DNA of 64,000 nt from contig NC_057720.1 in the NCBI RefSeq assembly GCF_004010195.1, positions 10,899,181-10,963,180 on the forward strand, read 5' to 3'. The translations under genes were made by a program, and so were the position numbers. This document shows positions 8,101 through 63,770 of the stretch, in pieces. Below the pieces are notes generated by a model. It was not told the origin of the DNA. It saw nothing but the letters and a program-made list of their open reading frames with translations, and did not search any database. The stretch comes from Chiloscyllium plagiosum (lineage: Eukaryota). Position 1 is the first letter of the stretch, and every line of letters begins with the position of its first letter.

Positions 8101-8924
8101 AAGAAATTGAATTGGATTGAATTAGCTTTATTATCATGTACACAAATGAGTACAGTGAAAAATTTACCATTGCTGCATTACAGCGCTATCTCAGGCATAA
8201 AAGTACCTCAGTACAGATACTTAAGATCAAATACATTGGAAACAAAACAAATAGGAAAGTAAAGATATAAATAGCCCAGCATTATAGGTCAGAAAAATAA
8301 ATTAGGAATATAAAGAAGTTAAAAGTTCAGAATATCAGTCGGAATGTTGCCGTGAGAGTGGTGATTTGTCAATGTCACCTTGTCAGGATGAAGAAGTGGA
8401 AGGAGACAGAGTGTAAGCAGCTCCATAGTCACTAACTGTCCCCATTAACAGCTATTCACCCTCCCAGCCAGATTGTTATCCACTCCCTTGTCTGTCCAAT
8501 TGATCTTCCCTCTCGTTGGTCTCTATCCCCACCTGTCGTTTATTCCTTACCTCCTCCCTCTGCCCGATCTTCTGCATATAAACCGACATTTTCCTAACCA
8601 CTGTCAGGTCTGAGGAAGGGTCACCAGACACAAAAGGTTAACTTTGATTTCTCTTCACAGATGATGCCAGACCTGCTGAGCTTTTTCAGAAACCTTTGTT
8701 TTTGTTTCTGATTTACAGCATCTGCAATTCTTTCGATGTTTACTTTGCATCAAAATTAGGTCAGTTTAGTTAATATTGAGGGGCAAAAGCATGGAAATAG
8801 GCCAGTTGTACATCATTAGGGGGGTTCAGAACTCACCACTTAAACCCTAAAGAGAAAATGCAAAATGTATTTCCCCAACCTTTTCACCCTTGCCCACATG
8901 AATCAAAGGGGAAGAACATTTGGA

Positions 8925-9260
8925 GGTGGCTGAGTGATTCACACTGTTTCCTCACAGAACCCCAGGGACCCAGATTCGATTCCAGCCTTCGGCCACTGTC
9001 TGTATGAAGTCTGCATGTTCTAACCGTGTCTGTGTGGGTTTCCTCCAGGTGGCATGGCTTTCTCCCTCAGTCCAAAGATATGCAGATTAGGTGGATTAGT
9101 GATGCTAAATTGACGCATCGTGTCCAGGGATGTGTTGGTTAGGTGGATTAGCCATGGGGAATGCTACAGTTAAGGGGATGAGGTGGGGGCTGGTGGGGTG
9201 CTCTTCAGAGGGTGGATGCAGGTTTGATGGGCTAAATATCCTCTATGTGCCCTGTAGGGA
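8925..9260 (+). mobile_element. tRNA-derived SINE (HE1/V-SINE-like)
   Basis: A/B-box-like head, gggtttcctcc...cagtccaaagat core, LINE-like tail. Confidence 0.8.
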
Positions 9261-9388
9261 TTTGAAAATTCTGCCCACTAATGTGCTACTGTTATCTTTT
9301 GTAAGAATGTTCTTCAATATACACTGCACAATAATGAGACTTCTCTACTGCAAAACAGCTCTGCCATCAGAACTGAAGAATAGCCAAC

Positions 9389-9494
9389 CTGGTTGCCTCA
9401 TATGTATCGCCGACAGCATAAAAGGGTACCAGATCATTGTATTCATCAAACACTCCCCACCGAAGGTGAGCCCATTCATGGACTAATACACGAC
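9389..9494 (-). CDS. CLCA: CLCA coding exon 4 (HExxH zinc metalloprotease motif)
   Basis: [20 protein letters not shown]...EATR; 106 nt, phase 1-2, canonical ag/gt. Confidence 0.97.
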
Positions 9495-9589
9495 CTGTAA
9501 AAATAGAAACATTCATGACAACAACTCCCATTTCACTCAAAGCTAAATGGTACATTTGGAATAGTGGATTCAATTCTTGCCTCCCTGCT

Positions 9590-10213
9590 TTATGAAAGGT
9601 GTTGTGAAACATAAAAGGGTTGAGCAAAGATTTCGACAATGTTGCCAGCATTGGAGAGTTTGAGCTATAGGGAGAGGCTGAGTAGGCTGGGGCTGTTTTC
9701 CCCGGAGCATCGGAGGTTGTGGGGTGACTTTATGAAGGTTTATAAAATCATTAGGGCGTGTACAAAATTAACAATCAGACAACACCAAGTTGTACTCCAA
9801 CAAGTTTATTTGGAAACACTAGCTTTTGGTGCACCGATCAAGGAGCATATGATGTGGTGTTGTGTGATTTTTAACTTTGTACACCCCAGTCCAACACTGG
9901 CACCTCCAATCATGAGGGGCAGGATAGGTTAAATAGTCAGGATATTTTCCCTGGGGTGGGGGAGTCCAAAACTAGAGGGCATAGGGTTTAAGGTGAGAGA
10001 GAAAATGTAACATAAGGGGCAATTTTTTACACACAGAGGTTGGTGCATGTATGGAACGAGCTGCCAGAGGAAGTGGTGGAGGCTGGTACAATTATAGCAT
10101 TGAAATTTGCATCTGGACATGTGTACGAATAGGAAGGGTTTAGAGAGATATGAGCCAAATGCTGGCAAATGGGACTAGATAAATTTAGAATATCTGCACA
10201 ACTCTGTGACTCC
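9590..10213 (+). mobile_element. CR1 3' fragment with a nested Penelope-terminal element (about 9757-9905)
   Basis: CR1 ORF2 C-terminus split by the aacacca..tccaacaagtttatttgg repeat. Confidence 0.8.
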
Positions 10214-11579: not shown

Positions 11580-12450
11580 GCTTATAGTCCAACAGGTGTA
11601 TTTAAGATGTGGAGGTGCCAGTGTTGGACTGGAGTGGAGAAAGTTAAAAATCACCCAACACCAGGTTATAGTCCAATTCGTTTATTTGGAAGTATAAGCT
11701 TTCTTTGGTTGAATTCTCTTCACCTGCTTCAAAAGCTTGTGATTTTAAATAAACCTGTTGGAATACTGCATGCAATTCTGGTCTCCTTGCGATAGGAAAG
11801 CTGTTGCGAAAATTGAAAGGGAAAGGGTCCAGAAAAGATCTACAAGAATGTTGCCAGTATTAGAGGGTTTGAGCTATAGGGAGAGGCTGAGTAGACTGGA
11901 ATTAATTTCCCTGGACCATCTGAGGCTGAGGGATAACCTTGTAGAGGTTTACAAAACCATGAGGGGAATAGATAGGGTAAATAGTCAAGGTCTTTTCCCT
12001 GGGGTGGGGGAGACCAAGACTAGAGGGCATAGGTTTAAGGTGGAGAAAGTGAGGACTGCAGATGCTGGAGATCAGAGCTGAAAATACGTTGCTGGAAAAG
12101 CGCAGCAGGTCAGGCAGCATCCAGGGAACAGGAGAATCGACGTTTTGGATATAAGCCCTTCTCAGGAAGGGCTTATAGGTTTAAGGTGGGAGAGGAAAGA
12201 TTTAAAAGTGATTTAAGGGGCAACTTTCCATGCAGGGAGTGGTGCGTGTATGGAATGAGCTGCCAGTGGAGGTGGTGGAGGCCAGTACAATCACAACTTT
12301 AAAAACATCTGCATAGGTATATGAATGTGAATGGTTTAGAGGGATATGAGCCAAATGCTGGTAAATTGGACTAGATTAATTTAGGATATCTGGTCGGCAT
12401 AGATGAGTTGGACCAAATGGTCTGTTCCATTTGGTACAACTCTATGACAC
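11580..12450 (+). mobile_element. Penelope-terminal element followed by a CR1 3' fragment with a nested hammerhead-type element (12044-12174)
   Basis: LEYCMQFWSP... CR1; 15-bp TSD ataggtttaaggtgg at 12029-12043 and 12175-12189. Confidence 0.8.
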
Positions 12451-14763: not shown

Positions 14764-14869
14764 ACAAGCCAAAGCCAGCTGGGAATGAGGCAACCACAGG
14801 GGCTTTCAGGTTGGAGGCGACTATTCCAAGGGAGTCCTAACCCACCAAATCTTTTTAATTGCCTCACAC

Positions 14870-15030
14870 TGAGGATTGCAGATGCTGGACATTAGAGTCA
14901 AGATTGGAGCGGTGCTGGAAAAGTACAGCAGGTCAGACAGCATCCAAGGAGCAGGAAAATCGATGTTTCATCAGCTTCTTGGATGCTGCCTGACTTGCTG
15001 TGCTTTTCCAGCACGACTGTAATCTTGACT
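14870..15030. mobile_element. Palindromic Penelope-terminal element (family A)
   Basis: gctggaaaag..cagcaggtcag..agcatcc, followed by its reverse complement. Confidence 0.75.
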
Positions 15031-15604
15031 GACACTGCACCATGGCCTTTCATGCACCCCATGTCAAGATACAGCACTTTTAGCTCATTCAACCATAGTC
15101 TGTAGAAGCGATTAACATGATTGTGACAAGAAGATGTGCACAAAAATTTCTCAAAATAACTTCAGTAAGTAGTTTTCACGAATCAAAGTGTCAATTATTC
15201 AGATCTGTTGAAATGTCAATTCCGGAAAATATAAGCACTCAAAACCTCTTCAACTTGCATAAATAAACATTGTGCAATTGACAGAAGAGATCAGTGGACT
15301 AGATCTATTAATCAAACAATGTTTTCCCTGGGACTCAGTTGTGTCTGCACTTGAATGAACAACTGGGTTCTCAAGCAGGAGCGTATGTATAAAGGGACTT
15401 CTGAATTCATCAGCTTATCTATAACATAGAAAAGGGAAAGGTTTGTCACATTCAATAAAGGAACTAATTTCCCCAAAGTGGTGCATGTTGTCAATATAAC
15501 CAATATCCCATTGAAGAGAACAAATGATGCAGCTGTTTTATATATATAAACAAACAGTGGTTTGGCTCACTGAATGTGATGAGTCAATTGAGGATCTTGA
15601 ATGA

Positions 15605-15825
15605 AAGAAAGTGAGGACTGCAGATACTGGGAGTCAGAGTGGAGAGTGTAGTGCTGGGAAAGCACAGCAGGTCAGGCAGAATCCGAGGAGCAGGAGAGTC
15701 AATATTTCGGGTATAAGCCCTTCATTAGGAATGAGTGACGAAGGACATATGCATGAAACATCGACTCTTCTGCTCTTTGGATGCTACCTGACCTGCTGTA
15801 CTTTTCCAGGGCCACACATTTCAAC
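15605..15825. mobile_element. Palindromic family A element with two degenerate hammerhead cores
   Basis: gaaagtgaggactgcagat head; tttcgggtataagcccttcattagg; inverted copy follows. Confidence 0.75.
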
Positions 15826-16249
15826 TAGGGGTCTTGAATGTCAGTGCAGGTCATTGAGGACATACCCATGGACACTTCAGTAGATTGCAGATAAATGGCA
15901 ATAAAACACACTGTTGCATCTCTGCTAATGTACTTTATCCTGGTTTATCACCAGGTTTTTGAGAGCAGTTTGGGATGGGCAATAAATGCTAGCCATCCAG
16001 CAATGCCCCTGTTAAATGGCCTGCTCCTCTTCCTATTTTTTATGGTTTATTAGATGGGAGAATAGAGGAAGCTATAGCTTCAGGGGAAGAGCACTGGGAG
16101 AGAAGAATTTGGGGCTCAAGAATTTAAACAGTGATGAGGATGGCAAACTGCCTCCTCCCTCTCTCTTTCCAAGAAGTCACACACAAGCGTTAGCAAGATT
16201 GAAAGGAAATTGGTGATCTATTATTGAAGAAAATCTATTCATTGCAAAA

Positions 16250-17637
16250 CTGTTTAAGAAGGGTGGTAAGGACAAGCCAGGGAACTATAGACTAGTGAGC
16301 CTGACATCGGTGGTGGCAAGTTGTTGGAGGGAATCCTGAAGGAGAAAGTGAGGACTGCAGATGCTGGAGATCAGAGCTGAAAATGTGTTGCAGTTCAGGC
16401 AGCATCCAAGGAACAGGAGAATCGACGTTTCGGGCATAAGCCCTTCTTCAGGAATCCTGAAGGACAGGATGTACTTGTAATTGGAAAGGCAAGGACTGAT
16501 TAGGGATAGTCAACATGGCTTTGTGCGTGGGAAATCATGTCGCACTAACTTGATTGAGTTTTTTGAGGAAGTAACAAAGAAGATTGATGAGGGCAGAGCA
16601 GTAGATGTGATCTATATGGACTTCAGTAAGGCATTCAACAAGGTTCCCCATGAGAGACTGATTAGCAAGGTTAGATCTCACGGAATACAGAGACAACTAG
16701 CCATTTGGGTACAGAACTGGCTCAAAGATAGAAGACAGAGGCTGGTGGTGGAGGGTTGTTTTTCAGACTGGAGACCTGTGACCAGTGGAGTGCCACAAGG
16801 ATTGGTGTTGGGCCCTCCACTTTTTGTCATTTACATAAATGATTTGGATGCGAGAATAAGAGGTATAGGGAGTAAGTTTGCAGATGACACCAAAATTGGA
16901 GGTGTAGTGGACAGCGAAGAGGGTTACCTCAGATTACAACAGGACCTTGACCAGATGGGTCAATGGGCTAAGAAGTGGCAGATGGAGTTTGATTCAGATA
17001 AATGAGAGGTGCTGCATTTTGGGAAAGCAAATCTTAGTAGGACTTATACACTTAATGGTAAGGTCCTAGGGAGTGTTGCTGAACAAAGAGACCTTGGAGT
17101 GCAGGTTCATAGCTCCTTGAAAGTGGATTCGCAGGTATGTATGGAATGAGCTGCCAGAGGAAATGGTGGAGGCTGGTACAATTGCAACATTTAAGAGGCA
17201 GTTGGTTGGGTATATGAATAGGTAGGGTTTGGAGGGATGTGGGCCGGATGTTGACAGGTGGGACTAGATTTGGTTGGGATATCTGGTCGGCATGGACAGG
17301 TTGACCGAAGGATCTGTTTCCTTGCTGTACATCTCTATGACTCTATGACTCTATGTTTAGGGTGAGAGGGGAAAGATATAAAAGAGACCTACAGGGCAAT
17401 TTTTTCACGCAGAGGGTGGTACATGTATGGAATGAGCTGCCAGAGGAAGTGGTGGAGGCTGGTACAATTGCAACATTTAAGAGGCAGTTGGATGGGTATA
17501 TGAATAGGAAGGGTCTGGAGGGATATGGGCCAGATGCTGGCAGGTGGGACTAGATTGGGTTGGGATATCTGGTCGGCATGGATGAGTTGGACCGAAGGGT
17601 CTGTTTCCATGCTGTACATCTCTATGACACTATGACT
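16250..17637 (+). mobile_element. CR1 LINE RT region with two tandem 3' ends and a nested family A element (16344-16450)
   Basis: ORF 16481-17005 SQHGF..YMDFSKAF..SGVPQG..KFADDTK; TSD ggaatcctgaagga at 16330-16343 and 16451-16464. Confidence 0.9.
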
Positions 17638-20724: not shown

Positions 20725-21505
20725 TGATTAGATTAGATTACTTACAGCATGGAAACAGGCCCTTTGGCCCAACAAGTCCACATCTACCCTCCGAAGAGCA
20801 ACCCACCCAGACCCATTCGCCTACATTTACCCCTTCCTGCTGTGGTTCTGTTCGCCGAGCTGGAAGTTTTTGTTGCAAACGTTTCGTCCCCTGTCTAGGT
20901 GACATCCTCAGTACTTGGGAGCCTCCTGTGAAGCGCTTCTGTGGTGTTTCCTCCGGCATTTATAGTGGCCTGTCCCTGCCGCTTCCGATTGTCAGTTTCA
21001 GCTGTCCGCTGTAGTGGCCGGTATATTGGGTCCAGGTTGATGTGTTTGTTGATGGAGTTTGTGGATGAGTGCCAATTGCAGCGGACAGCTGAAACTGACA
21101 ACCAGAAGTGGCAGGGACAGGCCACTATAAATGCCGGAGGAAACACCACAGAAGCGCTTCACAGGAGGCACCCAAGCACTGAGGATGTCACCTAGACAGG
21201 GGACGAAACGTTTGCAACAAAAACTTCCAGCTCAGCGAACAGAACCACAGCAACGAGCACCCGAGCTACAAATCTTCTCACAAACTTTGATTTACCCCTT
21301 CACCTAACACTACAGGCAATTTAGCATGGCCAATTTACCTAACCTGCACATCTTTTGACTGGGCTGTGGGAGGAAGCCAGAGCACCCAGAGGAAACTCAC
21401 GCAGACACGGGGAGAATGTACAAACTCCACACAGACAGTTGCCCGGAATTGAACCCAAGTCTCTGGTGCTGTGAGGCAGTAGTGCTAACCACTGTGCCAT
21501 CGTGT
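20725..21505 (-). mobile_element. SINE split by an inverted-repeat Penelope terminal element (20837-21289)
   Basis: 12-bp TSD atttaccccttc at 20825-20836 and 21290-21301; inverted arms of about 175 bp. Confidence 0.88.
21176..21215 (+). ncRNA. Minimal hammerhead ribozyme motif (family B)
   Basis: GCA-CTGAGGA-TGTCACCT-AGAC-AGGGGAC-GAAA-C-GTT^TGC. Confidence 0.7.
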
Positions 21506-21914: not shown

Positions 21915-23725
21915 GTAAAAATGAGGACTGCAGATGCTGGAAACCCGAGTCTGGATTAGAGTGGTGCTGGAAAAACACAGTAGGTCAGCCAGCATCCGAG
22001 GAGCAGGAAAATCAACGTTTCGGGCAAAAGCCCTTCATCAGCAATAGAGGCAGAGTGCCTGCAGAGTGGAGAGATAAATGGTGTGGGGGTGGGGAGAAAG
22101 TAGCATAGAGTACAATAGGTGAATGGGGGTAGGGATGGAGGTGATAGGTCAGAGAGGAGAGTGAGGGAAGGTAGCAAAGAGTACAATAGGTGAATGGGGG
22201 TGGGCATGAAGGTGATAGGTCAGAGAGGAGGATGAAGTGGATAGGTGGAAAGGAAGATAGACAGGTAGGACAAGTCATGGGGATGTGCTGAGCTGGAAGG
22301 TTGGAACTGGCGTAAGATGGGTGGAGGGGAAATGAGGAAACTGTTGAAGTCCACATTGATGCCCTGGGGTTGAAGTGTTCCAAGGCGGAAGATGAGGCGT
22401 TCTTCCTCCAGGCGTCGGGTGGTGAGGCAGCAGCGGTGGAGGAGGCCCAGGACCTCCATGTCCTCAGCAGAGTGGGAGGGGGAGTTGAAATGTTGGGCCA
22501 CAGGGCGGTGGGGTTGATTGGTGTGGGTGTCCCAGAGATGTTCCCTAAAGCGCTCTGCAAAGAGGCGTCCAGTCTCCCCAGTGTAGACAAGACTGTTGAG
22601 CAATTCATTAACTTCACCAATACATTCCACCCCAATCTTAAATTCACCTGGACCATCTCTGATACCTCCCTCCCCTTCCTGGACCTCTCCATCTCCATTA
22701 ACAACGACTGACTTAACACTGACATTTTTTACAAACCCACCGACTCCCACAGCTACCTGGATTACACCTCTTCCCACCCTACCTCCTGCAAAAATGCCAT
22801 CCCGTATTCCCAATTCCTCCGCNNNNNNNNNNNNNNNNNNNNNNNNNNNNNNNNNNNNNNNNNNNNNNNNNNNNNNNNNNNNNNNNNNNNNNNNNNNNNN
22901 NNNNNNNNNNNNNNNNNNNNNNNNNNNNNNNNNNNNNNNNNNNNNNNNNNNNNNNNNNNNNNNNNNNNNNNNNNNNNNNNNNNNNNNNNNNNNNNNNNNN
23001 NNNNNNNNNNNNNNNNNNNNNNNNNNNNNNNNNNNNNNNNNNNNNNNNNNNNNNNNNNNNNNNNNNNNNNNNNNNNNNNNNNNNNNNNNNNNNNNNNNNN
23101 NNNNNNNNNNNNNNNNNNNNNNNNNNNNNNNNNNNNNNNNNNNNNNNNNNNNNNNNNNNNNNNNNNNNNNNNNNNNNNNNNNNNNNNNNNNNNNNNNNNN
23201 NNNNNNNNNNNNNNNNNNNNNNNNNNNNNNNNNNNNNNNNNNNNNNNNNNNNNNNNNNNNNNNNNNNNNNNNNNNNNNNNNNNNNNNNNNNNNNNNNNNN
23301 NNNNNNNNNNNNNNNNNNNNNNNNNNNNNNNNNNNNNNNNNNNNNNNNNNNNNNNNNNNNNNNNNNNNNNNNNNNNNNNNNNNNNNNNNNNNNNNNNNNN
23401 NNNNNNNNNNNNNNNNNNNNNNNNNNNNNNNNNNNNNNNNNNNNNNNNNNNNNNNNNNNNNNNNNNNNNNNNNNNNNNNNNNNNNNNNNNNNNNNNNNNN
23501 NNNNNNNNNNNNNNNNNNNNNNNNNNNNNNNNNNNNNNNNNNNNNNNNNNNNNNNNNNNNNNNNNNNNNNNNNNNNNNNNNNNNNNNNNNNNNNNNNNNN
23601 NNNNNNNNNNNNNNNNNNNNNNCTTCTCACTTATCTCTCCACCCTGCCTCTATTGCTGATGAAGGGCTTTTTCAATTTTCCTGGCTGACCTGCTGTGCTT
23701 TTCCAGCACCACTCTAATCCAGACT
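21915..23725 (-). mobile_element. Penelope-like element (GIY-YIG on minus, inverted RT-thumb piece on plus), spanning a gap and nested in CR1
   Basis: VYTGETGRLFAERFREH...VAQHFNS...EERLIFRLGTLQPQGIN; FINFTNTFHPNLKFT..LPFLDL; flanked by gataggctg. Confidence 0.85.
22823..23622. other. Assembly gap (800 N)
   Basis: Run of N. Confidence 1.
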
Positions 23726-25630: not shown

Positions 25631-25891
25631 CTTTAGCAACTTTAATTGATTTGTTCGTTACATATTTCTGACTGTTTCTGTAATGGTGAGGTTTTGTTAT
25701 CAGTGCATTCTGCCCAAATGAGTCATGACGACATGGCAGAAACCACTAAACTCCTCTCACATCTCTATAAACACTCAAATAAATATTCACCCAGGCTAGC
25801 CAGTCGCTCTGGGATAGGTGGACCTGGTAATATCCTTGGTGCTGTGCTCTGCCTTGCCATTCAGATTATCCTGCAAATTCCTGATGAAGGG

Positions 25892-26205
25892 GCAGCGTGG
25901 TGACACAGTGGTTAACACTGCTGCCTCACAGCGCCAGGGACCCGGGGTTCAATTCCCACCTCAGGCAACTGCCTGTGTGGAGTTTGCATGTTCTCCCCAT
26001 GTATGCGTGGTTTTCCTCCGGGTGTTCCGGTTTCCTCCCGCAGTCCAAAGATGTGCAGGTCAGGTGAATTGGCTAAATTGCCTGTAGTGTTAGGTGCATT
26101 AGTCAGAGGTACATGGGTCTGGGTGGGTTGCTCTTCGGAGGGTTGGTGTGGACTTGTTGAGCTGAAGGGTCTGTTTCCACACTGTAGGGAATCTAATCTA
26201 AAAAA
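25892..26205 (+). mobile_element. SINE inserted into the hammerhead core of a family A element
   Basis: cctgatgaaggg[SINE]aagggcttatgcctgaaacatcg. Confidence 0.85.
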
Positions 26206-26422
26206 AGGGCTTATGCCTGAAACATCGACTCTCCTGCTCCTCGGGTGCTGCTTGACCTGCTGTGCTTGCCACACTTTTCAAATCTGGATGGGTGTGTAAA
26301 GCAAATTCAAACATGAATTATAAAGCAGCATTAAAATGTGTGAAGATAGGCCTGTCACAGAAAGTCTCCTGTTTACTGCAACTCTCTGCCAGGGACTCGA
26401 GTGTCCAGTCTGGGTGAAAGTT

Positions 26423-28149: not shown

Positions 28150-28322
28150 ACAAGTGACGACTGCAGATACTGGAAACCAGAGTCAAGGTTAGAGTGATGC
28201 TGGAAAAGCACAGCAGGTCAGGCAGCATCCGAGGATCAGGAAAATCGACGTTTCGAGTAAAAGCCCTTCATCAGGAATGGAGTTGAAGGGCTTTTGCACG
28301 AAACATCGATTTTCCTGCTCCT
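28150..28322. mobile_element. Palindromic family A element
   Basis: gactgcagatactgg head; hammerhead core on the minus strand and a degenerate inverted copy. Confidence 0.75.
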
Positions 28323-31509: not shown

Positions 31510-31749
31510 GCTAGGTGAAAGTGAGGACTGCAGATGCTGGAGATCAGAGTCAAGGTCAGAGTGGTGCTGGAAATGCACAGCAGGTCAGGCAGCATCCGAC
31601 GAGCAGGAAAATCGACGTTTCGGGCCAAAGCCCTTCATCAGGAATCTTCTTATTTCTGATGAAGGACTTTGCCTGAAATGTTGATTTTCCTGTTCCTCGG
31701 ATGCTGCTTGACCTACTGTGCTTTTCTAGCACCACTCTAATTTTGACAC
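31510..31749. mobile_element. Palindromic family A element nested in a CR1-type tail
   Basis: TSD aaaagtctctg at 31499-31509 and 31750-31760; two opposed hammerhead cores. Confidence 0.8.
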
Positions 31750-44963: not shown

Positions 44964-45859
44964 CTGGAGAATAGTGGACATTGATAGCATTAAAAACAGT
45001 CACCAAATGAAAGCGAAACTAAACATTCCAAAACTTATATAATATTAACTTACCTAACAAAAGTTAAAATTTGCATCGTAAAATAAACAGGAAGTGTATT
45101 TAGTCATTCAGGACATGAATACTGAATAGGAGAAAATGAGGACTGCAGATGCTGGAGATCAGCATCGAGAGTGTGCTTTTCCAGCACCACACTCTCGACC
45201 ACGAATATCGAATCCCTTCAGTACAGAAAGAAGCCACTTGGTCAATTGGTCTGTGCTGATCCTCAGAAGAGCATCCCACCTAGACACACTCGCCCACTCT
45301 ATCCGCACAACCCCTCAATTACTATGGAAAATCCACCTCGCCTGCACATCTTTGGTCTGGGGAGGAAACCGGCAGAAACCCATGCAGACACGGGGAGATT
45401 ATACCAACTTCACACACACAGTCACCCAAAACTAGAATCGAACCTAGGTCCCTGGCACCATGAGGCAACAGTACTAACCACAGAACTGCCCAAATATTGC
45501 TGTGGAAACATATTCTGCTGAAACTCTTTTTCTTGCAGTTGGGACAACTTAGTTCATCATGCCAACATTGGCACTACAGACAAACTATCCACTTAGTTTA
45601 AAACCCCTATAATATGTTTTTCTCTACAATACTCCAGTTCCATTTTGAAAGTAACTGTTGAATCTGCTTCCACAATTCTTTCAGATACTTCACAGTGCAA
45701 GAAACATTCTCATCTTCTGGTTCTTTCACAAATTCTTTAGATTTACACGGTGTCTGGTTCTCTGGCCAAGAGAAAGTTCCTCTTTATTTACTCCATCGAG
45801 AAACCCTACAATTTTGAAGACCAATTAAACTTTCTGTGCTTTGAGTGCAATCTGAAGAG

Positions 45860-46043
45860 TCTAGATTAGAGTAGTGCTGGAAAAGCACAGCAGGTCAGTC
45901 AGCATCAGCACATTCCTGATGAAGGGCTTTTGCCTGAAATCTCGATTTTCCTGCTTCTCAGATGCTGCCTGACCTGCTGTACTTTTCCAGCACCACTGTA
46001 ATCTAGACTCTCCAGCATCTGCAGTCCTTACTTTCGCCTCCAG
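45860..46043. mobile_element. Family A element with an inverted arm
   Basis: TSD tctgaagag at 45851-45859 and 46044-46052. Confidence 0.78.
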
Positions 46044-46330
46044 TCTGAAGAGCCCAAGTCACTCTTCATTATTAAACTAACTGAAAACATAAAAGCAAAG
46101 TGCAGGAAATCTGAAATAAAGATGCTGGAAATGTGCATGTCTGGCAGCATCGGAGTAACAGAAAACTCTGCTCCTTTGTCCACATGGTTATAAATCACAC
46201 GGTCCAAGGTTATAGTACAACAGATTTATTTGAAATCACAGGCTTTACCTGATGAAGGAGCAGCACTGTGAAAGCTCATGATTTTGAAAAAAAAAACCTG
46301 TTGGACTGTAACCTGGCATCATGTTTTCTG

Positions 46331-46908
46331 GAAGAGAAAGTGAGGTCTGCAGATGCTGGAGATCAAAGTTGAAACTTTATTGCTGGAACAGCACAGCAGG
46401 TCAGGCAGCATCCAGGGAACAGGAGATTCGACGTTTCGGGCACAGGCCCTTCTTCAGGAATGAGCAGACAGTGTTCAGCAGGAGAAGATAAAAGGTAGGG
46501 AGGAGGGACTTGGAGGAGGGGCATTGGAAATGTGATAGGTGGAAAGAGGTCAAGGTGAGGGTGATAGGTCGGAGTAGGATGGAGGCGGAGAGGTCAAGAA
46601 GAAGACTGCAGGTCAGGAAGGCGGTGCCGGGCTGGAGGGATCCGGCTGAGACAAGGTGGGGGGAGGGGGGATGAAGAAACTGGTGAAGTCCAAGTTCATC
46701 CCCTGCGGTTGGAGGGTTCCCAGTCGGAAGATAAGACGCTCCTCCTCCGACCGTCGGGTTGTTGTGGTTTGGCGGTGGATGAGTCCAATGACCTGCATAT
46801 CCTCGGTGGAGTGGGAGGGGGAGTTGAAATGCTGTGCTACAGGTTGGTTGGGTTGGTTCGTCCGGGTGGCCCAGAGGTGCTCTCTGAATCGCTCCGCAAG
46901 TAGGCTCA
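46331..46908 (-). mobile_element. Penelope-like 3' fragment (GIY-YIG C-terminus and hammerhead terminus) nested in a family C element
   Basis: LAERFREHL...EEERLIFRLGTLQPQGMN; 13-bp TSD atcatgttttctg at 46318-46330 and 46909-46921. Confidence 0.88.
46426..46461 (-). ncRNA. Minimal type I hammerhead ribozyme motif (family A)
   Basis: ATTC-CTGAAGA-A-GGGC-CTGT-GCCC-GAAA-C-GTC^GAAT: intact core with paired stems I and II. Confidence 0.75.
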
Positions 46909-47909
46909 ATCATGTTTTCTGACCTTGTCCACTCCAGTCCAAACACTGGCACCTCCAAATCATTTGTTCACATGATGAATTTTATGAATAAAGTATATTT
47001 TTGAAGTTAAAAAATTAACTGTTTTTTCTCCACAGATACTGTTTGACCTGCTAAGCTTTTCCAGCAATTTTTATCACCTTTTCCCGGTCTGCGTATGATC
47101 CCAGACCCTGGGTGTGATCCCAGACCCTGGACAACACAGGTAACTCTTTACTAACCTCTGAAATAACCCAATAACCTACAAGGTTCAGAGGGCAATTAGG
47201 AATGGGGACCAACAGTGTGGCCTGTGAAAGACCATATTGAAAGCGCAACACGATACAGTCAGAGTTGTACAGAAACATAATCTTCAGTCCAACTTGTCCG
47301 TGCCAACCTGATATCCTAACCTAATCTAGTCCCATTTAGCAGCACTTGGTCCATACCCCTCTGAACTTTTCCTATTCATGTACCCATGAATATGATGCTC
47401 GCCATGATGTGGAGGAGTCGGTGTCGGACTGGAGTGGACAAAGTTAAAAATCAAGGTTAGTGTGGTGCTGGAAAAACACTGCAGGTCAGGCAGCATCTGA
47501 GGAGCAGGAAAATCGATGTTTTGGGCTTGATGCCATGGATTTGAAGGGTCCCGAGGCAGAAGATGAGGCGTTCTTCCTCCATGCGTTTGGTGGTGAGGGA
47601 GTGGCGGTGGAGGAGACGCAGGACCTGCATGTCCTCGGCAGAGTGGGAGGGGGAGTTGAAACGTTTGGCCATGGGGCGGTTGGGTTGATTGGTGCAGGTA
47701 AACCAGACATGTTCTCTGAAGCGCTCTGCGAGTAGTTAATAGAAAAGTTAAAGTCACACAACACTAGGTTACAGTCCAACAGTTTATTTGAAAGCACTAG
47801 CTTTCGGAGGACTGCTGGTGTTGTGTGATTTTTAACTTTTAAAATGCTATAATTGTACCAGCCTTCACCACTTCCTCTGGCAGCCAGAAAGAAGGTTCCA
47901 CCGACTCAT

Positions 47910-49209: not shown

Positions 49210-51163
49210 TCGTCAGGTCCCTAGTCCTCGCCTACCATCCCATCAACATTCACATCCAGAGGGTCAGCTGCCTTTTCCACTACCTCCATGAGATGCCACC
49301 ACCAGAGACATATTCCCTTCCTCTCCACTGTCAGCTTTCCACAAGAACCATTCCCTCCAGACACTCTGGTCCACTCATCCTTCATTCCCAACACTCAGTA
49401 TCCAAACACACCTTCCAGGTGAAGCCGTGATTTACCTGCACTTCACTCAATGTAGTCAACTGCATTCGCTGCTGACAATGTGGTCTCCTCTACACTGGGG
49501 AAACGAAGTGTAGACTGGATGACCATTTCACAGAAAGTCTACATTCTGTCTGCAAAAAAGACCCTGAGCTTTCAGTTGCCTGACACTTCAACACACCACT
49601 GTGTCCCCTGGCCAATATCTCTGTCTCGGGCTTGCTGCAGTGCTCCAGTGAAGTTCAGCACAAGCTGGGAGAACAGCACCTCATTTTCTGCTTTGGAATA
49701 CTACAACCTTCTGGACTCAATATCAACATCACTAACTTTGGGGCCGAGGCACCTTCTCCCATGTCCTTACCCCAAGCCCCACACACTAGGCCTTGTTATC
49801 ATATGGTCTGCTATAACATTGTTAGCCACTAACAATCCCCATTAGAAGCCGTTCATTCTCCTAGGCTGACAGTGATCCACAAGGAGATAATGAGGACTGC
49901 AGATGCTGGAATAACACAGCAGGTCAGGCAGCATCGGAACAGTAGGAAAATCGACGTTTCAGACATAAGCCCTTCAACAGGAATATGGCATGGGGTAGAG
50001 ATAAATAGAAGGTTGGGGGTAGGGCTGGCATTGGCAAGGTTGCTGGGAAGGCAATAGGTGGATGCAGGAGCAAGCTGATTGTTATAGGTCAGTGGGGAGG
50101 GTAGAGTAGATAGGTGGGAAGGAAGCTGGACAGTGGAACAGATCAAGAGCGTAGTGTTGAGTTAGAGGGTTGAATCTGGAATGAGGTGGGAGAGGGGAGA
50201 TTTGGAAACTAGTGAAGTTGATGCTGATGTCATGTGGTTGAAGATTCCCAAGGCAAAAGATGGGGCGTTCTTTCTCCAGTCATTAGGTGGCTTGGATTTG
50301 ACGGTGGAGGAGGCCCAGGACTTGCATGTCCTTGGTGGAATGGGAGGGAGCATTGAAGTGTTTGGCCACAGGGCAGTGGGATTGCTTGGAACGTGTGTCC
50401 CAGAGATGTTCCCTGAAATGGTCCATGAGTTGGCATCCTATTTCCCTGATGTAGGGGAGACCACATCAAGAGCGAAAGACACAGTAGATGAGGTAGATGG
50501 ATGGGCAGGAAAGACTTTGCCAGATGTGGAAAGATTCTTTGGGGCCTTGGACAGAGGTGAGGAGGGAGGTGTAGGAGCAGGTTTTATACCTCGTGCAGTG
50601 GCAAGGGAAGGTGCCGGTTGTGGAGGATGGGTTGTGGGGGGTGTGGACCTAAGAAGGGAGTCACAGAGGTAATGGTCTCTGCGGAACGCAGATAGGAATC
50701 AGGAGGCAGTATGTCTCTGGTGGAGGGATCTGATTGTAGGCAGCAGAAGTGCAGCAGCGCTGCATCCGGAGATTATTGGGGTGGAAGGTGAGGACCAGAG
50801 GGGTTCTGTCTGTGTTGCAGTTGGAGGGGTGGGCTCAAAGACGGAGAAGCACTGGGGGGCATTGTTGATCACATTCGAGGGGAATACGTGGTCCTTGAAA
50901 TAAGACGATCCATCATTTTGTCCAACTGCTCTTCTCTCTCTCTCTCTGGGGTCTATCTCCACCGAAGAATTACCCCTTCCCTCCGCCCTATCTTCTGCAT
51001 AAAAAAAAACTTTATTCTAGCTACCATCAGTTCTGAGGAGGGGTCACTGGATCTGAAACATTAACTGTGATTTCTCTCCAGAGACATGCTGCGTTTTTCT
51101 AGCAGTAGATGTTTTGGACGTGGATTCTGGATTATAGTGGTGCTGCAAGAGCACAGCAGTTCA
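49210..51163. mobile_element. Composite Penelope-like insertion splitting the minisatellite
   Basis: GIY-YIG remnants on both strands, two hammerhead-type termini, flanked by ggatctgacc (49200-49209, 51164-51173). Confidence 0.75.
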
Positions 51164-51604: not shown

Positions 51605-51650
51605 CCAATCAGCGGCGAGCCCTCGGTGCCCAGCAACAGCTGCTAGAGAC
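51605..51650 (+). promoter_or_regulatory. CpG-rich promoter with CCAAT box and two RFX X-box-like motifs
   Basis: CCAAT 51605-51609; GTGCCCAGCAAC 51626-51637; GCTGCTAGAGAC 51639-51650; CpG-rich context; possible non-coding exon donor near 51675. Confidence 0.6.
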
Positions 51651-51999: not shown

Positions 52000-52180
52000 T
52001 TGTTCTCTCATGAGAGGGAGATATTGGTGGTGGTTTAACCTGAGGGTCACCGCACCTCGGGGAAAGGGGAGAGAGGTTGAGAAGGAGAGTCCTTCATGGT
52101 AACCTCAGCTGGTGCAGAGGTTGAACTCACACTCTTGGCTTCACAAAGCAGCTCTGCATTCAGCTGAGCTAACCCACCCC
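52000..52180. repeat. Interspersed SINE-like family (ggtttaacctgagggtcacc); other copies near 4740, 13020, 56140, 58415
   Basis: Shared motif tttaacctgagggtcacc...ggggagaggttgagaagg at several sites. Confidence 0.6.
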
Positions 52181-57868: not shown

Positions 57869-60800
57869 GTAACTAACTACTGTGTTTGTTCTGCCTTTTA
57901 ATACATGTCACCAAGTTTTACAGTGTAAAAAGAGACCATTCAGCCCAACGGGTCTACGCTGGCTCTTCAGATGAGCGTCATTAACTGGTGCCAATCTCCT
58001 GCCTTTTCCCCATACCATAGCACATGATTTTTGTCCAAATAAGTGTCCAATGCCCTCTTGAATGCCTCAATTGAACCTGCCTCCACCACACTTCCAGGCA
58101 GTGCATTCCATTCTCTAACTACTCATGGAATGAAAATCTCATTTTTCACATCACCCCTGTTTCTTTTCCAAATTACCTTAAATCTATGCCTTCTCATTTT
58201 TGTTCTTGTAATATAGGCATTCATATGAAATTACGTTGCTTGTTATTTTAATTGAAGCGTGAAAATGTATTTCAATGTGGAGTCATTGGGGTCAGTTGGC
58301 TGAACAGTTGGCTTAATGCAGGATGATGCAAGTGATGTGTGGGTTCAGTTCCTGTACGGCTGAATCTACCATGAAGAATTCCCCTTCTTGTCCTCTCCCT
58401 TCACTTGAGGCTAAGTGACCCTCAGGTTAAACCACCACAAATTGTCCTCTCTGTAACAAGGGAGCAGCCCTCCGCACCTGTAGCTACTTTTAATATCTTA
58501 ATGGCAAGCAGTGCTAATGGTTTACTGTTACATCTGCGTCAATTTTATTCAAATTCGGTGAAAACCATTTTAAAGTTATGGAAGCAATTAAGTTAATTGC
58601 TAAGTCGATTTCTAAAATTTATTCATAGTGTCATTGGCTAGGCTAGCATTTGTTTTCTATCTCGAATTACCCTTGAGAAGATGCTCTTGAGCTCACTTTT
58701 TGAACTATTGAATTATGTTGATTCACTGACCAAAACGAGCACTTGTTTCTCTTTAGCACCCACTGATCAAAACCTATTCTTAAAGCTAGTGACAAACTCA
58801 TGTTAATACTGAGGCTGTGAACTGGAATCAAATCTATATCCTCTTAATTACACACACAGACACCCAAGCTCAACATAAAATACCAAGTTTCTGCACAGGT
58901 TGTAGTTTCAAAAAAGGCAAAAGTGAACGAAGAGCCCCAAGCACAAAGCTTGGGAATGAAAGGTAAATTGTGATCCTTTTTTACATCCGCTGAATTGCCA
59001 GTCAATGAAGCTGAATTTCATGCGGTAGATTGATGATAAAGGTGTATTTCTGACTGCAATCAACCTGGATTCAAGTAACTGGGGACTGGTCATAAAGTAT
59101 CCCTTCTGCGTTTACCTGGTAATTTGGAATTATACTGTTATTTTGAAACTTTTTCAGCTTGCCAGGAGCATCTAATGATATTCAAGACAGAGGCTGGCAA
59201 CTTAACAACGTAAGAACTAGGAGCAGGAGTAGGCCACCTGGCCCTTCAAGCCTGCTCTGCCATTCAATAAGGTCATGGCTGATCTTTTCATGGACTCAGG
59301 CCCACTTACCCGCGCTTTCACCATTAACCTACCCACGCTTTCACCATTAACCTTAATTCCTTTACTGTTCAATAATCTATCGATCTTTGCCTTAAAAACA
59401 TTTAATGAGATAACCTGAACTGCTTCACTGGGGCAGGGAATTCCACAGATTCACAACCCTTTTGGGTGATGAAGTTCCTCCTCAACTCAGTCCCAAATCT
59501 GCTCCCCATTATTTTGAGGCTATGCCCTGTAGTTCTAGCTTCTAACCTGTCTTCTTTACATCGACTTCTGAGTGTGTAAATCAAAATTCTAAGTCCAGAA
59601 AGGGTTGTTTGGCATCCCTTAGTAGAGATCCCCTAGTCCCTTCAAAGCCAGGGAATGAAGCCAATAGACCCGATATCTAATTTTCTTGAAAGCTTTGCTT
59701 GACTGTTTCTTGGCAGGTAAATCACAGTCCACGAAAATATTGGCTTTATTTCCAACAAATCATGTGGTGAAAACCTTTCTCAATGCTGAAAATGTTCAAA
59801 TAGTTCAAGTTGTTCTGGTTTCTTCCAGACAATTCTGAAATATAAATATAGTCATCCTAGCAATTACAAAGAAAGGGTATGAGATGGATGTAAATACAAC
59901 GCTGTGGTGTGTTTTGTAGTCCTGTGTCCTGGCTGACATGTTTCCCTTGCCCAACACCAAAGCTATTTAATTGGGAATCCATCTCTTTGTTGTTTGTTAG
60001 TCTTTGTTGAGCCCAGACTAGGCTCTGAAGTTTTGCTACGTTAATGTGACAAACACTGCTACAAATGCAACTAACTGCCAATGAAGGCCTTTCAGATAGC
60101 TTGAGGTTGTAAATGAAATAACTCTATGGAGGCCGGTGTCCAGTCATTAAGTCACACTGTATTTACACATGGACAGTAACACTGCCTCATACAGAGTCAG
60201 GCACCAATGAGTCAGTATCTCTGATGAAGAGCTTATGCCTGAAATGTCAATTCTCCTGCTCCTCAGATGCTGCCTGACTGGCTGTGCTTTTCCAGCACCG
60301 CATTTTGACTTTGATCTCCAGCATTTGCAGTCCTCACTTTCTCCTAAGGTTAAAAATCACACAACACCTCCAAATCATCACTTTAATATTAGTCAGAGTT
60401 CCCTGACTGGACTGGGTTAACAATCCCAATCAAGAGACTCAATCTATGATGTCCAGTTGGCTGACCTCATTACAATCACTGCTGTAAACCTCTCCAGTGG
60501 AAAGCCTTTCACTTACTGGTTTATAAATTTGCTGAGTGTCATCAGAAGCATTGAAAATAGGAGTAGGAGCAGGCCCTTGTTTCATCAGTTATTCCACATG
60601 TAACTATTTTAGGTGTTGCATTTGAATGCCTCATTCATTCTGAGGTCCAATTCATTTCAAATCCTTCTTGATTGTTTCCAGTCCCTCTTTGTGATTAGCT
60701 ACTTGAAGTAGAATGATTAGTTTGCTGCTGCTGTCACATGGAACTTGGCCAAGTACCATTAAACTGATAACACTTCTTTCAACTGCAGCTGCACGTTTCA

Positions 60801-61474
60801 GGATTTCAAGTTCTGCAGAGCCATCTGGTAGTCGTCTCAAGATAGCCAGCATGCCTTCGTTTATTGTGATTGTATATTGAGAGTAATTTGTTTTATGCAA
60901 AGCTCAGTTTATCAATCCCAAATCAGGATACTGTCGTTTAGCAGCAGTTCAGCCAAGTAATCCCAAAGGCATTGGAATTCTGTTGCAGAAAACATGAGTT
61001 TAAATCCCATCCTGTTTTCTGGGGACAATTTGATTGCCATATTCTTTTTAAAACCCAAACTGATATAAATGCAGGAAACCTTTATATTTGTTGCCCTTTG
61101 GTATAATAGAAAGGCTACACTAATAAGTTACTTGAGAAGTTTCCTGTCATAATTTAGGAAGTTTTGCTTAAGATATGGGTTAAGCAGTTACATGTTACCT
61201 TGCTTGAGGGGGTGAAGAGGGTTGGTGGAGGGGAGTGGGGGGAGGGAGTTGGGGCAGGGGAGGGGAAGGGAATTGGTGGACAGGGGAGGTGGGGCGTGCA
61301 GAGGGAAGAAACCACACTTCTGTGCCTTAACTGCTGGAAATTTGGAATTTCCATTCATTTGTGAATATCTCAAATTGCAGAGCATAATAGAGCTTGCTAC
61401 CCTGATACAATATCAATAATGTGATAAGATGGACCTCTCCAACCCGAAAGATCCAGGAAAGATCTTGGAGAAGA

Positions 61475-63770
61475 TCTGTAGCTTGGGTTGTAAGTTTGCT
61501 GGCTGAGCTGGTGGGTTTGTTCTCAGACGTTTCATCATCATGCTGGGTAACATCATCAGTGAGCCTCCAATGAAGCGTTGGTGTTCTGTCCTGGTTTGTT
61601 GTTTATGTGTCTTGGTTTGTTGTGATGAGTGATATCATTTCTGGTTCTGTTTCTCAGACGTTGGTAAATGGGGTCCAGATCTATATCTTTGTTAATGGAG
61701 TTCTGGTTTGAATGCCAGGCCTGTAGGAATTCCCATGCCTGTGTTTGTTTGGCTTGTCCCAAGACAGATGTATTGTCCTAGTCGGACTAGTGTCCCTCTT
61801 CGTCTGTGTGTGTAGATACCAGTGATAGTTGGTCATGTGTTTTGGTGGCTAGTTGGTGCTCATGTATCCTGGTGGCTAGCTTCCTGCCCATTTGTCCAAT
61901 GTAATGTTTGTTGCAGTCCTTGCAGGGTATTTTGTATATTACGTTCGTTATGCAGGCTGTGGGTACAGGGTCCTTAAATTCATCAGCAGTTGTTTTAGTG
62001 CGGTAGTGGGTTGGTGGGTTACCATGATGCCTAAGGACCGGAGTACCTGGTGGTCAACTCTGAAATGTTTTTGATGTATAGTAGGGTGACTTGAATCTCT
62101 AGGTGTGTACTGTCTTCCTGTTTAGGTTTGTTGTGCAGGATTCGTCAGACTGCGCTTATCAGGTAACTGTTGTTCCTGAATAAGTTGTGTAGTTGCTTCT
62201 CCTCAGCTTCTCGTAGTTGTGGTGCTGCAGTGTGTTGTGGCATGTTTGAATAGTGTCCAGATGCAATTCCATTTGTGGGTGTTGGGATGGTTGCTTCTGT
62301 AGTTGAGTATCTGGTCTGTCTGTGTCGCTTTCCTGTAAACAGTGGTCTACATTGGCTTTTTATTTTCCCATGACATCCAAGAAGGGGAGTCGGTTATTGT
62401 TCTTTTCCTCTTTGGTGAATTTTATACCGGTGAGGATGTTGTTTATGTGTTTGTGGGTTTCTTCTAGTTTATCATGCTTGATGATATAAAGGTGATATCC
62501 ACAAAGCTTAGGCTGGATCATGGGAAGGGCTGTTCATTCCAACCTCTGCATAACTGCTTCTGCTATAAGTCCTGATATTGGTGATCCCATAGGCATCCAT
62601 TGATTTGTATATCGTGTCGTTGAAGGTGAAGTGGATTGTGAGGCATAGGTCCAGGGTCATTTGAGGATGCTGTCCTTGCTGATAGAGTTGGCACTATCAG
62701 GTGTCAGGTATCCTTGGTTGGTCTAGCAGTGAGGCCAGTGTTTCTTTCGCAAGGATAATGTTTATTGATGTGAGTAGGGCCATCAGGTCGAAGGAAACCA
62801 TGACCTCCTCATCCTCTACCTTGGTGTCTTTGATAATGTTAAGGAGTTCCTGGGCAGAATGATTGGAGTGGGTTGAGTCTTCTACCAGGTATTCTGGTTT
62901 ACGTTGCAGTTTCTTTGCTAGCCTGTCTGTTGGAGCGCTGGGAAGTCAGGCTACAGATCCGGAAGTGAGGGGGTGGGGTGTCCCTTGTTTGTGTACTTTT
63001 GGCAATCCGTAGAAATGGGGTGTGTCTTGTTAATTCCTGATGAAGGACTTTTGCCCGAAATGTCAACTCTTCTCCTCCTCAGATTCTGCCTGACCTGCTA
63101 TGCTTTTCCAGCACCACACTCTCGATTCTAATCTCCACAATCTGCAGTCCTCCCTTTCACCTTGTTAATTTCGTCTGCCTTGTGTAGTTTCCTCAGGAAT
63201 GCTGTAATGTGGTTTGTTAGCTGCGGAGTCAGGTCCATCGCCACCTGTTGGTAGGTGTCAGTATAGCTTAGTAGTGTGTTCGCTTTTTCAATGTACTGTG
63301 TTCCGTACAGGATGATGGTCATGCGCCCTTTGTCTGCCGGTAAAGGGACAAGAAATATTTCTGTCTTTTCTGAGTCCTTCCAGGGCTTTCTTCTCAAGTG
63401 TGTTGAGGGCATTCCCTCCTTTCTTTCTGCTTAGTGTTGGTGCTACCATCTGGTCTGCTGGGTTTCTTCTGCAAGTCTGTTGTCTTTGAGGGTGGATTCC
63501 AGTGCGGCTAGAAGGTCCTTTTTGTCTATGTCCCTGTGGTTGTAGTCCATCGTACTAGAATGGCCTTTCCATATCTTTGAGTGCTCAGTCCGACAGGTTC
63601 TTTATCCAGCTCACACACAGACATTGCTGTGTGTGAGCTTAGTTAGTTTTTCTTGTTGGGCCAGTCCTTTCTTTGTTCTGGTCTGCTGTTGTTTAATGCA
63701 GGTGGCTTATTCTAACATAGTTGTCCATTCATGGTAGGTCACATTAGTGTACAAAGGTTTTTGGCATGAA
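61475..63770 (-). mobile_element. Long degenerate Penelope-like element (RT, GIY-YIG, hammerhead terminus) with a nested family A element (63036-63160)
   Basis: PADKGRMT; EVMVSFDL.ALLTSI; GSPISGLIAEAVMQRLE; GIY-YIG remnants; TSD cttgttaatt at 63026-63035 and 63161-63170. Confidence 0.88.

Follow-up and report, generated by a model that had tools for sequence, protein, structure and literature searches.

The hammerhead motifs scattered along a 64,000-nucleotide stretch of the Chiloscyllium plagiosum genome (the window) are very probably the minimal hammerhead ribozymes (min-HHRs) carried in the pLTRs of Penelope-like elements; the scattered copies are likely inert, and pairs of motifs in a parent element are predicted to cut slowly. 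This kind of element has already been described (PMC4209133), and the putative elements of the window are its shark members. An earlier reading of the letters without database searches (the sequence-only reading) had invoked Penelope-like minimal type I hammerheads, in families A to D, and the link is now established for A, B and D by the element remnants to which the cores are joined.

With a strict descriptor (CTGANGA, a stem II of at least 3 bp, GAAA, palindromic 15.2/16.2 and NUH) we found nine complete minimal type I hammerhead cores in the window, against a mean of 0.03 (maximum 1) in 100 block-wise dinucleotide shuffles of it; the loose pattern CTGANGA..GAAA occurred 28 times, against 5.7 (maximum 10). 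The catalytic boxes CUGANGA, GAAA and NUH are present in type I order, and the bulge after A9 (an unpaired base between A9 and 10.1 in 9/9 strict matches), the G10.1-C11.1 pair (G-C in seven of the nine rows, G-U in two) and the 15.2/16.2 palindrome are as in published min-HHRs. Two complete cores, 28274(-) and 20911(-), had been overlooked by the sequence-only reading; the sites it did list have the positions and strands given there, except that the one placed at 45917 starts at 45916. Its estimate (well over a dozen cores, remnants included) is borne out, because a covariance model trained on nine A, B and D cores returned 19 window sites at E<0.05, ten of them outside the training set. Rfam at its gathering score gave no hammerhead match in the window and, at E up to 10 within 42000-52000, eight weak matches with no hammerhead among them; an ARAGORN search found no tRNA.

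Searches with tblastn placed GIY-YIG or RT remnants directly 5′ of the cores 22041, 46457, 49980, 20911/21179 and 61559 (Table 1). Neptune-like RT/GIY-YIG remnants terminate in A and D cores and Poseidon-like ones in B cores, all cores being sense to the ORF; in the longest Poseidon-like remnant, 61595-63322(-), RT and C-terminal GIY-YIG follow each other in order. The D core is tied to its remnant (49221-49739) across a nested insert by 43/58 and 127/169 identities, and none of 300 shuffles scored as high. The nested A-type element contains a GIY-YIG remnant with a CX4CxxC linker at 50118-50846, and the inverted arm of the unit 21914-23726 ends at 23649-23726(+), with the core deleted and no tail. 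A CX2-5CxxC linker separates Neptune/Nematis from Penelope/Poseidon (PMC8557442); we found it in the proteins P0001 and P0010/L002 and in the window at 50118-50846, and the B-type proteins P0003-P0006 are devoid of it. By this linker A and the C-like contigs are placed at the Neptune/Nematis level; together with D, whose decayed remnant has no readable linker, they are called Neptune-like. Pfam gave weak RVT_1 and GIY-YIG matches on the homologues, those to GIY-YIG below the cut-off. The window contains no intact parent element and no partial tandem (two direct pLTRs around a full ORF), an arrangement needed in active copies only.

Table 1. Hammerhead cores, inserts and linked element remnants in the window.
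Feature	Positions	Strand	Remarks
Family A1 complete core to H17	43105..43132	+	Unit ~43067-43233 with tail; 7-bp flanking repeat
Family A1 complete core ending a Neptune-like remnant	22014..22041	-	Inverted unit 21914-23726, 9-bp duplication
GIY-YIG endonuclease remnant, upstream of core 22041	22226..22591	-	70% to P0001
RT fragment of the inverted arm of the 22041 unit	22589..22822	+	Runs into N gap
Family A1 complete core	28247..28274	-	Head to head with short arm 28284-28322(+)
Family A1 complete core	31614..31641	-	Paired head to head (31513-31750) with decayed core 31656(+); 11-bp duplication
Family A complete core, solo stub in CR1-like LINE remnant	16424..16451	-	14-bp duplication overlaps stub start
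Family A2 complete core	46430..46457	-	GIY-YIG remnant upstream, 46676-46999(-)
Family A head-to-head pair	45852..46043	.	Core 45916(+), palindrome broken; 9-bp duplication
Family A stub	60216..60349	+	Core 60221 decayed; abuts short family C end 60346-60368
Family A stub inside RT of the B2 element	63029..63166	+	Core 63037 decayed; 10-bp duplication
Family A stub, core decayed	12039..12168	-	15-bp duplication
Family A head-to-head pair	15606..15827	.	Both cores decayed; 9-bp duplication
Family A head-to-head pair without 5′ catalytic box	14868..15031	.	
A-type element nested in the D element	49881..50907	-	Core 49980, A6 changed
A-type GIY-YIG remnant joined by deletion to partial A end	47445..47735	-	
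Family A core split by inserted short repeat (25890-26201)	25876..26288	+	
Family B1 complete core	21179..21212	+	Arm with tail to ~21287; ATG at A9-bulge-G10.1
Family B1 complete core	20878..20911	-	Arm without tail in palindrome 20836-21290, 12-bp duplication; upstream lies a Poseidon-like endonuclease end
Family B2 complete core	61526..61559	-	3′ end of Poseidon-like RT/GIY-YIG remnant
Poseidon-like RT + GIY-YIG remnant	61595..63322	-	Stops and frameshifts
Family C palindromic stub	46186..46325	.	Decayed core 46249-46277(+), AGCT palindrome
Family C stub, 3′ half of core on - strand	47742..47839	.	
Family C stub, one arm with tail extension	9755..9908	.	
Palindromic stub of family C, core deleted; tail on one arm	11604..11766	.	
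Family D core	51033..51062	+	Stem I 5 bp, stem II paired, palindrome broken
Family D element: Neptune-like GIY-YIG remnant and 3′ region	49221..49880	+	Resumes 50908-51090 past nested A-type insert
Second family D copy	8426..8731	+	Core 8610-8639 decayed; homology with 49823-49880 and 50908-51080

At least four distinct families had been proposed. Homology between A and D 3′ of the core reduces these to three sequence groups unrelated to each other (A/D, B and C), within which about six lineages can be told apart, two of them in B. The claim that their stems co-vary stood between lineages and failed within family A. Between lineages 7/8 pairs change on both sides; 87.5% of the pairing cells are paired, against 61% after shuffling (0/500 as high) and at most 47% in slid controls; and stem I is paired at 17-19 of 20 places across five lineages, a value reached by one of 120 strand permutations. 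These figures come from an alignment of nine sequences (two C rows excluded) from about five related lineages, with the structure chosen from the same sequences, and do not amount to an R-scape-grade test because the lineages are few and related. Helices I and II are supported by this covariation between families, and the reported change in stem I between B1 and B2 is real (G-C to T-A at 2.3-1.3). Within family A, none of 64 stem II cells is compensated, nine are broken and nine are wobble pairs. The helix III palindrome, read earlier as ACGT or AGCT, is ACGT in A and B and AGCT in C, but is absent from both D copies (51033 and 8610), the latter of which also lacks G12.

We noted that the ATTC/GAAT stem I, taken as the rule for family A, is found in one of 14 A copies only, that at 46430-46457(-) (lineage A2), the sole A copy with a 4-bp stem I. 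Position 2.3-1.3 is mismatched as T-T in 11/14 copies and as T-C in 2/14, so that stem I in its majority A1 form contains a U-U mismatch. The ACGT palindrome is intact in eight of 19 A copies and decays at the CpG rate, with 14/38 of its letters changed against 36/93 at downstream CpG letters. Compared with base-matched flank, the core in all 16 A copies had 5 changes against 12.3 expected (P=0.016), and in the eight non-seed copies 5 against 7.1 (P=0.29, at low power); the supposed excess conservation of the core over its flanks thus does not appear in unselected copies. The raw contrast of core and flank (2.8% versus 9.5-10.9%) was discarded, being confounded by base composition and seed choice. 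Inserted A copies drift, which places selection for helix pairing in the master lineages and not in the scattered copies.

Family C stubs lie where they had been reported, but both catalytic boxes are found at 46249 only, where stem II and the pair 2.1-1.1 are broken; those near 9820, 11720 and 47795 lack the CTGATGA box. The 46249 stub was not found by the covariance model up to E=5, and comparison with 160 retrieved proteins tied no ORF to C in the window. In two near-identical marine metagenome contigs (L001 and L002) a Neptune-like remnant terminates in a C-type core, and both contigs match family C at 82% over a 34-nt core (E 0.001-0.002). Their 3′ flank has no significant similarity to family C (21/300 shuffles as high), and the best relatives of the L002 endonuclease reach 50-56% identity. 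Via these two contigs, family C is likely the pLTR end of a Penelope-like element.

The inserts bear Penelope hallmarks, namely inverted arms, an optional tail of 30-40 nt and duplications of 7-15 bp; most are 90-135 bp long and stop at the hammerhead front. In 27 A arms the 3′ ends fall mainly into two clusters (ten at profile columns 100-106 and 15 at 130-143, with two elsewhere), and six of the seven inverted A pairs have one arm with a tail and the other without. Flanking repeats of 7-15 bp border ten of the 16 units examined, a clear duplication being lacking in six, in a search that allowed overlap into the unit ends. Where C3 could be aligned, 11/16 arms stop 0-11 nt before it, and 0/27 A arms start within 3 nt of the predicted cut site. 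Because arms start ahead of the core, and none of them where cleavage is predicted, the RNA that was copied looks uncut. This agrees with the in vitro result for the anole hammerhead, which is protein-assisted and dispensable for insertion (PMC11167929).

In the mechanism that we propose, an active element in partial tandem would give rise, as in published work, to an RNA with two pLTR hammerheads. Helix III, being loop-less, would form only between two copies, via the ACGU or AGCU palindrome; cleavage after NUH would be weak and, again from published work, probably helped by the element's protein. New inserts would be copied from uncut RNA, with reverse transcription starting about 95 or about 130 nt 3′ of C3, thereby yielding the optional tail, and usually ending at the hammerhead front, while the endonuclease nick would produce the 7-15 bp duplication. 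Inserted copies would then drift, as those of family A do.

It is exceedingly improbable that the motifs are chance matches within ordinary repeats: although the loose pattern gives about six random matches per window and copies of one repeat are not independent, three unrelated groups have the same boxes with different paired helices, and the motifs sit where published elements carry them. For A, B and D chance is ruled out; family C, judged on its window copies alone, would fail such a test. The A stubs of about 130 bp could, instead, be a non-autonomous family in their own right, resembling SINEs or retrozymes, with transcription from the stub's own front end and mobilisation in trans by the Penelope-like protein. 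The arm starts just upstream of C3, the 10-15 bp duplications of solo stubs and the proposal that animal retrozymes are pLTR derivatives (bioRxiv 10.64898/2026.07.22.740005) would suit such a family, which we nevertheless think unlikely: the same ends are also found joined to ORF remnants of the window, stubs and ORF-linked ends alike include both tail classes, none of the arms begins at the cut site, and self-comparison and profile matches within the window revealed no head-to-tail tandem units, the retrozyme hallmark. We are also doubtful, if somewhat less so, that the motif persists for a structural or protein-binding role (as promoter, translation start or RT landing site) and has ceased to cleave in these shark lineages. 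Coding could constrain the B motif, because its ATG at A9-bulge-G10.1 begins a frame open to the element end (34 and 31 codons, with a chance of about 0.2 each by our estimate), as in the anole element; but coding cannot explain A, C and D, where the bulge is not T. The lowest-energy fold of A1 buries the core in another, non-hammerhead hairpin. ViennaRNA, which does not model the core, gave the double-hammerhead fold in 0/6 copies folded as dimers, a result counted for neither side. Published min-HHR dimers cleave poorly, with 8/9 Xenopus dimers yielding no product. Against this, boxes and palindrome are common to lineages with unrelated helices and flanks, and the anole motif, which is of the same kind, cleaves and responds to changes at C3/G8.

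A role in the host seems to us very unlikely, whether through domestication of some solo copies or through cleavage of host pre-mRNAs by solo copies that pair with a second ACGU core on the same strand. Seven of the nine complete cores are on the - strand, that of the TRIM-like and CLCA exons, and the nearest complete cores on one strand, both ACGU, are separated by 1,130 nt and belong to two families (20911 of B1 and 22041 of A1). The palindrome, however, decays at the CpG rate and unselected copies have no core excess, as described above; between two TRIM-like exons the matches to the A/D profile are 7 + 7 on the two strands, and the RING exon is frameshifted. We give equally little credence to the idea that the helix III palindrome is a compatibility code, by which ACGU cores of A and B would pair across families and AGCU cores of C could not, and cross-family dimers would cut shark pre-mRNAs that contain two ACGU cores on the same strand. 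If it were true, relics at the density seen in the window would impose a genome-wide RNA-cutting load, and such cutting of host transcripts would give the motifs far greater weight.

The min-HHRs in the pLTRs of metazoan Penelope-like elements (Cervera and de la Pena 2014, PMC4209133), to which we assign the motifs, are alike in being type I, with CUGANGA and a bulged base, G10.1-C11.1, no loop 3, a palindromic 15.2/16.2 and a short helix I. They also come in several families per genome, mostly solo, with opposite-strand pairs 100-700 bp apart; the 4-bp stem II of A and its majority stem I mismatch are points of difference. Great diversity, with solo copies in the thousands per genome, had been reported from coelacanth (~4,000) and Xenopus (~9,000), in comparison with about one complete core per 7 kb in our one window. 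The text of that paper and one supplement file contain no mention of shark, Callorhinchus, Leucoraja or Squalus, and a literature search found no paper on shark members of the Penelope-like min-HHRs; the described ribozyme class is here extended to sharks. Repbase and Dfam may already include the families concerned. The diverse repertoire proposed by the sequence-only reading is right in that Rfam misses all these motifs, but it consists mostly of decaying insertion debris of three groups. It offers a dense natural set of lineages for studying the role of the Penelope hammerhead, an open question in PMC8557442.

Group B resembles the Poseidon element PAc of Anolis carolinensis (Frangieh et al. 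2024, PMC11167929) in its Poseidon-like ORF, the hammerhead in the pLTR, the ATG where stem II begins, and two 3′ end classes that define a tail, and would be a second vertebrate case of a start codon within a ribozyme motif. PAc was assayed, whereas the shark copies are broken and known here from sequence, and A, D and the C-like contigs are Neptune-like. Inserts of EN+ Penelope-like elements (Arkhipova et al. 2013, PMC3846280; Craig et al. 2021, PMC8557442) likewise show 5′ truncation, an adjacent inverted head-to-head arm, an optional 30-40 bp tail on one arm and 8-10 bp duplications, but differ from most window inserts in the shortness of the latter and their stop at the hammerhead front. 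The C stubs are like a min-HHR of Chrysemys picta (PMC4209133, Supplementary Fig. S3) in having an AGCU palindrome followed by what is, by eye, a similar CCAAAUAAA stretch, although stems I and II differ. Non-LTR retrozymes, which have a type I hammerhead, are pLTR-derived and were reported in the one chondrichthyan genome sampled (bioRxiv 10.64898/2026.07.22.740005), are head-to-tail tandem units, in contrast to the dispersed and head-to-head copies of the window.

The family A pattern had no match in viral contigs and seven in contigs of prokaryotic genomes, five of which are chance-like, with no match to a Penelope-like protein. The remaining two both score against the covariance model; one (L007) has a Neptune-like remnant upstream of its min-HHR, and the other (L003) has a min-HHR and no ORF match. 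These two look like eukaryotic contigs within a MAG, and not like members of the shark family.

All the sites named by the sequence-only reading are present in the window, where a strict minimal-hammerhead descriptor returned nine complete cores (16451-, 20911-, 21179+, 22041-, 28274-, 31641-, 43105+, 46457- and 61559-; core start with strand), versus a mean of 0.03 and a maximum of 1 in 100 block-wise dinucleotide shuffles. A loose pattern gave 28 matches (5.7 in shuffles), and a covariance model trained on nine cores of families A, B and D detected 19 window sites at E<0.05, including 10 that had not been used to train it; an Rfam search of the window found no hammerhead. Core density, a figure from this single window, is one complete core per 7 kb, and Penelope-type ends occupy 7.0% of non-N sequence (16.0% when ORF remnants are added). 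The motifs are real, dense and new representatives, mostly relics, of the described class of minimal type I hammerheads (min-HHRs) of Penelope-like elements (PLEs). The available text of PMC4209133 documents diverse, mostly solo min-HHR families for fishes and reptiles as well as for coelacanth and Xenopus, with counts of about 4,000 and about 9,000 in the latter two, respectively. A whale-shark paper, in the part available, includes Penelope among listed repeats (PMC8455134), and a preprint excerpt reports one chondrichthyan genome with hammerhead-bearing retrozymes (bioRxiv 10.64898/2026.07.22.740005); in the accessible sections of a ribozyme review, 'shark' appears only as the name of a fold (PMC6155905). 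The published papers that we searched include none on Penelope hammerheads of sharks; the preprint's supplements may name shark families, and Repbase or Dfam may already contain the ones seen here.

The 3′ modules past the cut site of lineages A1 and A2 and of both D copies aligned with each other better than 299-300 of 300 shuffles, and none of 300 shuffles aligned as well as B1 with B2, whereas A/D, B and C showed no convincing similarity to one another (11-260 of 300 shuffles scored as high). Because A and D are homologous, as are B1 and B2, and the groups are dissimilar, the motifs are assigned by sequence comparison to three groups (A/D, B and C) with about six lineages, rather than to the four or more distinct families proposed earlier. 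Nor did the stems ascribed to these families all hold: ATTC/GAAT stem I, given as a family A trait, occurs in only 1 of 14 A copies (positions 2.3-1.3 are T-T in 11 and T-C in 2), and the palindromic stem III is lost from both D cores. Family C survives as palindromic or deleted stubs, among which the core at 46249 alone retains both boxes, its stem II being broken.

Co-variation of the stems, also claimed from sequence, holds only between lineages. Among nine A/B/D cores, both sides had changed in seven of eight pairs, and 87.5% of cells were paired versus 61.1% after shuffling (0 of 500 as high) and 24-47% in slid controls. When each of five lineages was represented by a single sequence, 17-19 of 20 stem I cells and 18-19 of 20 stem II cells were paired (1 and 2 of 120 strand permutations as high, respectively), counts that rest on few, partly related lineages and on a structure selected from the same sequences. 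Within family A, however, the stems decay. Of 64 stem II cells, 46 keep the pair, 9 have a wobble and 9 are broken, with no compensated cell among them; the single double change in stem I among 14 copies consists of two transitions, and palindrome letters changed in 14/38 cases versus 36/93 at downstream CpG letters. Together, all 16 spanning A copies carried 5 core changes versus 12.3 expected (P=0.016), but the 8 copies outside the profile seed gave 5 versus 7.1 (P=0.29), so that no excess conservation of the core beyond its flanks is demonstrable. The pattern within family A is one of decay. A short interspersed repeat (~310 bp, at least 10 window copies) is inserted inside one A core (25876-26288).

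Using tblastn of fetched proteins against the window, we located RT and GIY-YIG remnants. The A ends at 22041, 46457, 47527 and 49980 have Neptune-like GIY-YIG remnants on their 5′ side, and Poseidon-like remnants sit 5′ of B cores 20911/21179 and 61559, the last being 1.7 kb of RT plus endonuclease; these clade labels reflect a linker marker and protein similarity. The linker, CX2-5CxxC, a clade marker in the available text of PMC8557442, occurs in the A-type protein as well as the A-type remnant, and B-type proteins lack it. Another Neptune-like remnant (49221-49739), split by a nested A-type element, terminates in D core 51033, and a second D copy spans both halves of the split element (43/58 and 127/169 identities). 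The nested element (within 49221-51090) lies in opposite orientation with five identical bases on each side, and low-complexity repeated stretches (48918-49185 and 51126-51522) border the cluster. The named proteins nearest to the ORF remnants come from Chiloscyllium punctatum, Stegostoma tigrinum and Hemiscyllium ocellatum, which makes a carpet shark the likely host. Predicted proteins of Stegostoma and Hemiscyllium extend across the core regions of B2 (65% over 40 residues) and B1 (75% over 59 residues), respectively, so that, judged by protein similarity, these ends are common to several carpet sharks. In group B, the triplet made up of A9, the bulge and G10.1 is ATG, and its frame stays open for 34 and 31 codons, up to the end of the element, resembling an anole element whose ORF, in the part of PMC11167929 available, starts at stem II. 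Elsewhere, a ~400-bp direct repeat (88% identical; 17921-19208) brackets a Poseidon-like endonuclease remnant lacking a hammerhead end (18284-18807).

The 3′ ends of 27 A arms (end copies of the terminal repeat, pLTR) fell at profile columns 100-106 in 10 cases, 130-143 in 15 and elsewhere in 2. One long and one short arm make up six of seven inverted A pairs, and the same asymmetry is seen in the B palindrome and family C stubs. Flanking repeats, in a search that let them reach up to 15 nt inside the unit, measured 7-15 bp in 10 of 16 units and only 5-6 bp in 6. The window units are like insertions described in the available portions of PMC3846280 and PMC8557442, with inverted arm, tail (optional 3′ extension) and duplication. 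With C3 aligned, 11 of 16 A arms stop 0-11 nt before it at their 5′ ends and 5 extend upstream; the predicted cut lies more than 3 nt from the start of every one of the 27 arms. These data establish where the motifs lie and in which orientation, their structure, their insertion signatures and their decay.

As to mechanism, the accessible parts of PMC4209133 and PMC6765202 suggest that the two pLTR copies of a tandem transcript would pair with each other to form a loop-less helix III, with predicted weak cleavage. Most paired window cores are head to head and so cannot meet within one transcript. For a Poseidon element, the available text of PMC11167929 reports that hammerhead cleavage depends on the element's protein and is dispensable for insertion in vitro, and that the tail arises because RT can start at two internal sites. 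The ends in the shark window agree with this model, their boundary being at the hammerhead front; the template was apparently uncut and copied up to that point, which may be either the RNA start or an RT stop. The Drosophila Penelope pLTR contains an internal promoter (PMC2377424, available part). In the majority A1 type (43097-43140, plus strand), the lowest-energy fold joins the 5′ catalytic box with the cut-site region in an inactive hairpin, which is not favoured in predicted folds of A2 and could be an off state.

A family C motif pattern built from two window stubs matched two marine metagenome contigs, L001 and L002 (99.6% identity over 677 bases), each with a fully paired C-type core ~820 nt past a GIY-YIG domain that carries the linker motif.

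C-type cores on the matched contigs
Feature	Location	Source
C-type core in Neptune-like element	L001:964-1004	marine metagenome contig
C-type core in Neptune-like element	L002:1328-1368	marine metagenome contig

The match of this core to window 46243-46276 is 82%, but its 3′ flank has no significant similarity to that of family C, and family C is thus likely to be a Neptune-like element end. The near-identity of the cores may be due to common ancestry, to transfer or to convergence. One prokaryotic MAG also includes two contigs with min-HHR motifs (L003:1494-1533 and L007:1494-1534, both minus strand), one of which adjoins a Penelope-like ORF remnant. Both contigs appear to be eukaryotic contaminants.

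The window also holds host exons. A TRIM-like gene has a RING/B-box exon (47945-48560, minus) with a frameshift inside RING and, 19 kb downstream, a PRY/SPRY exon (28737-29315, minus); a pseudogene or a misassembly is the likely explanation. A further exon (9370-9510, minus) matches the CLCA N-terminal domain (Pfam E 4e-14).
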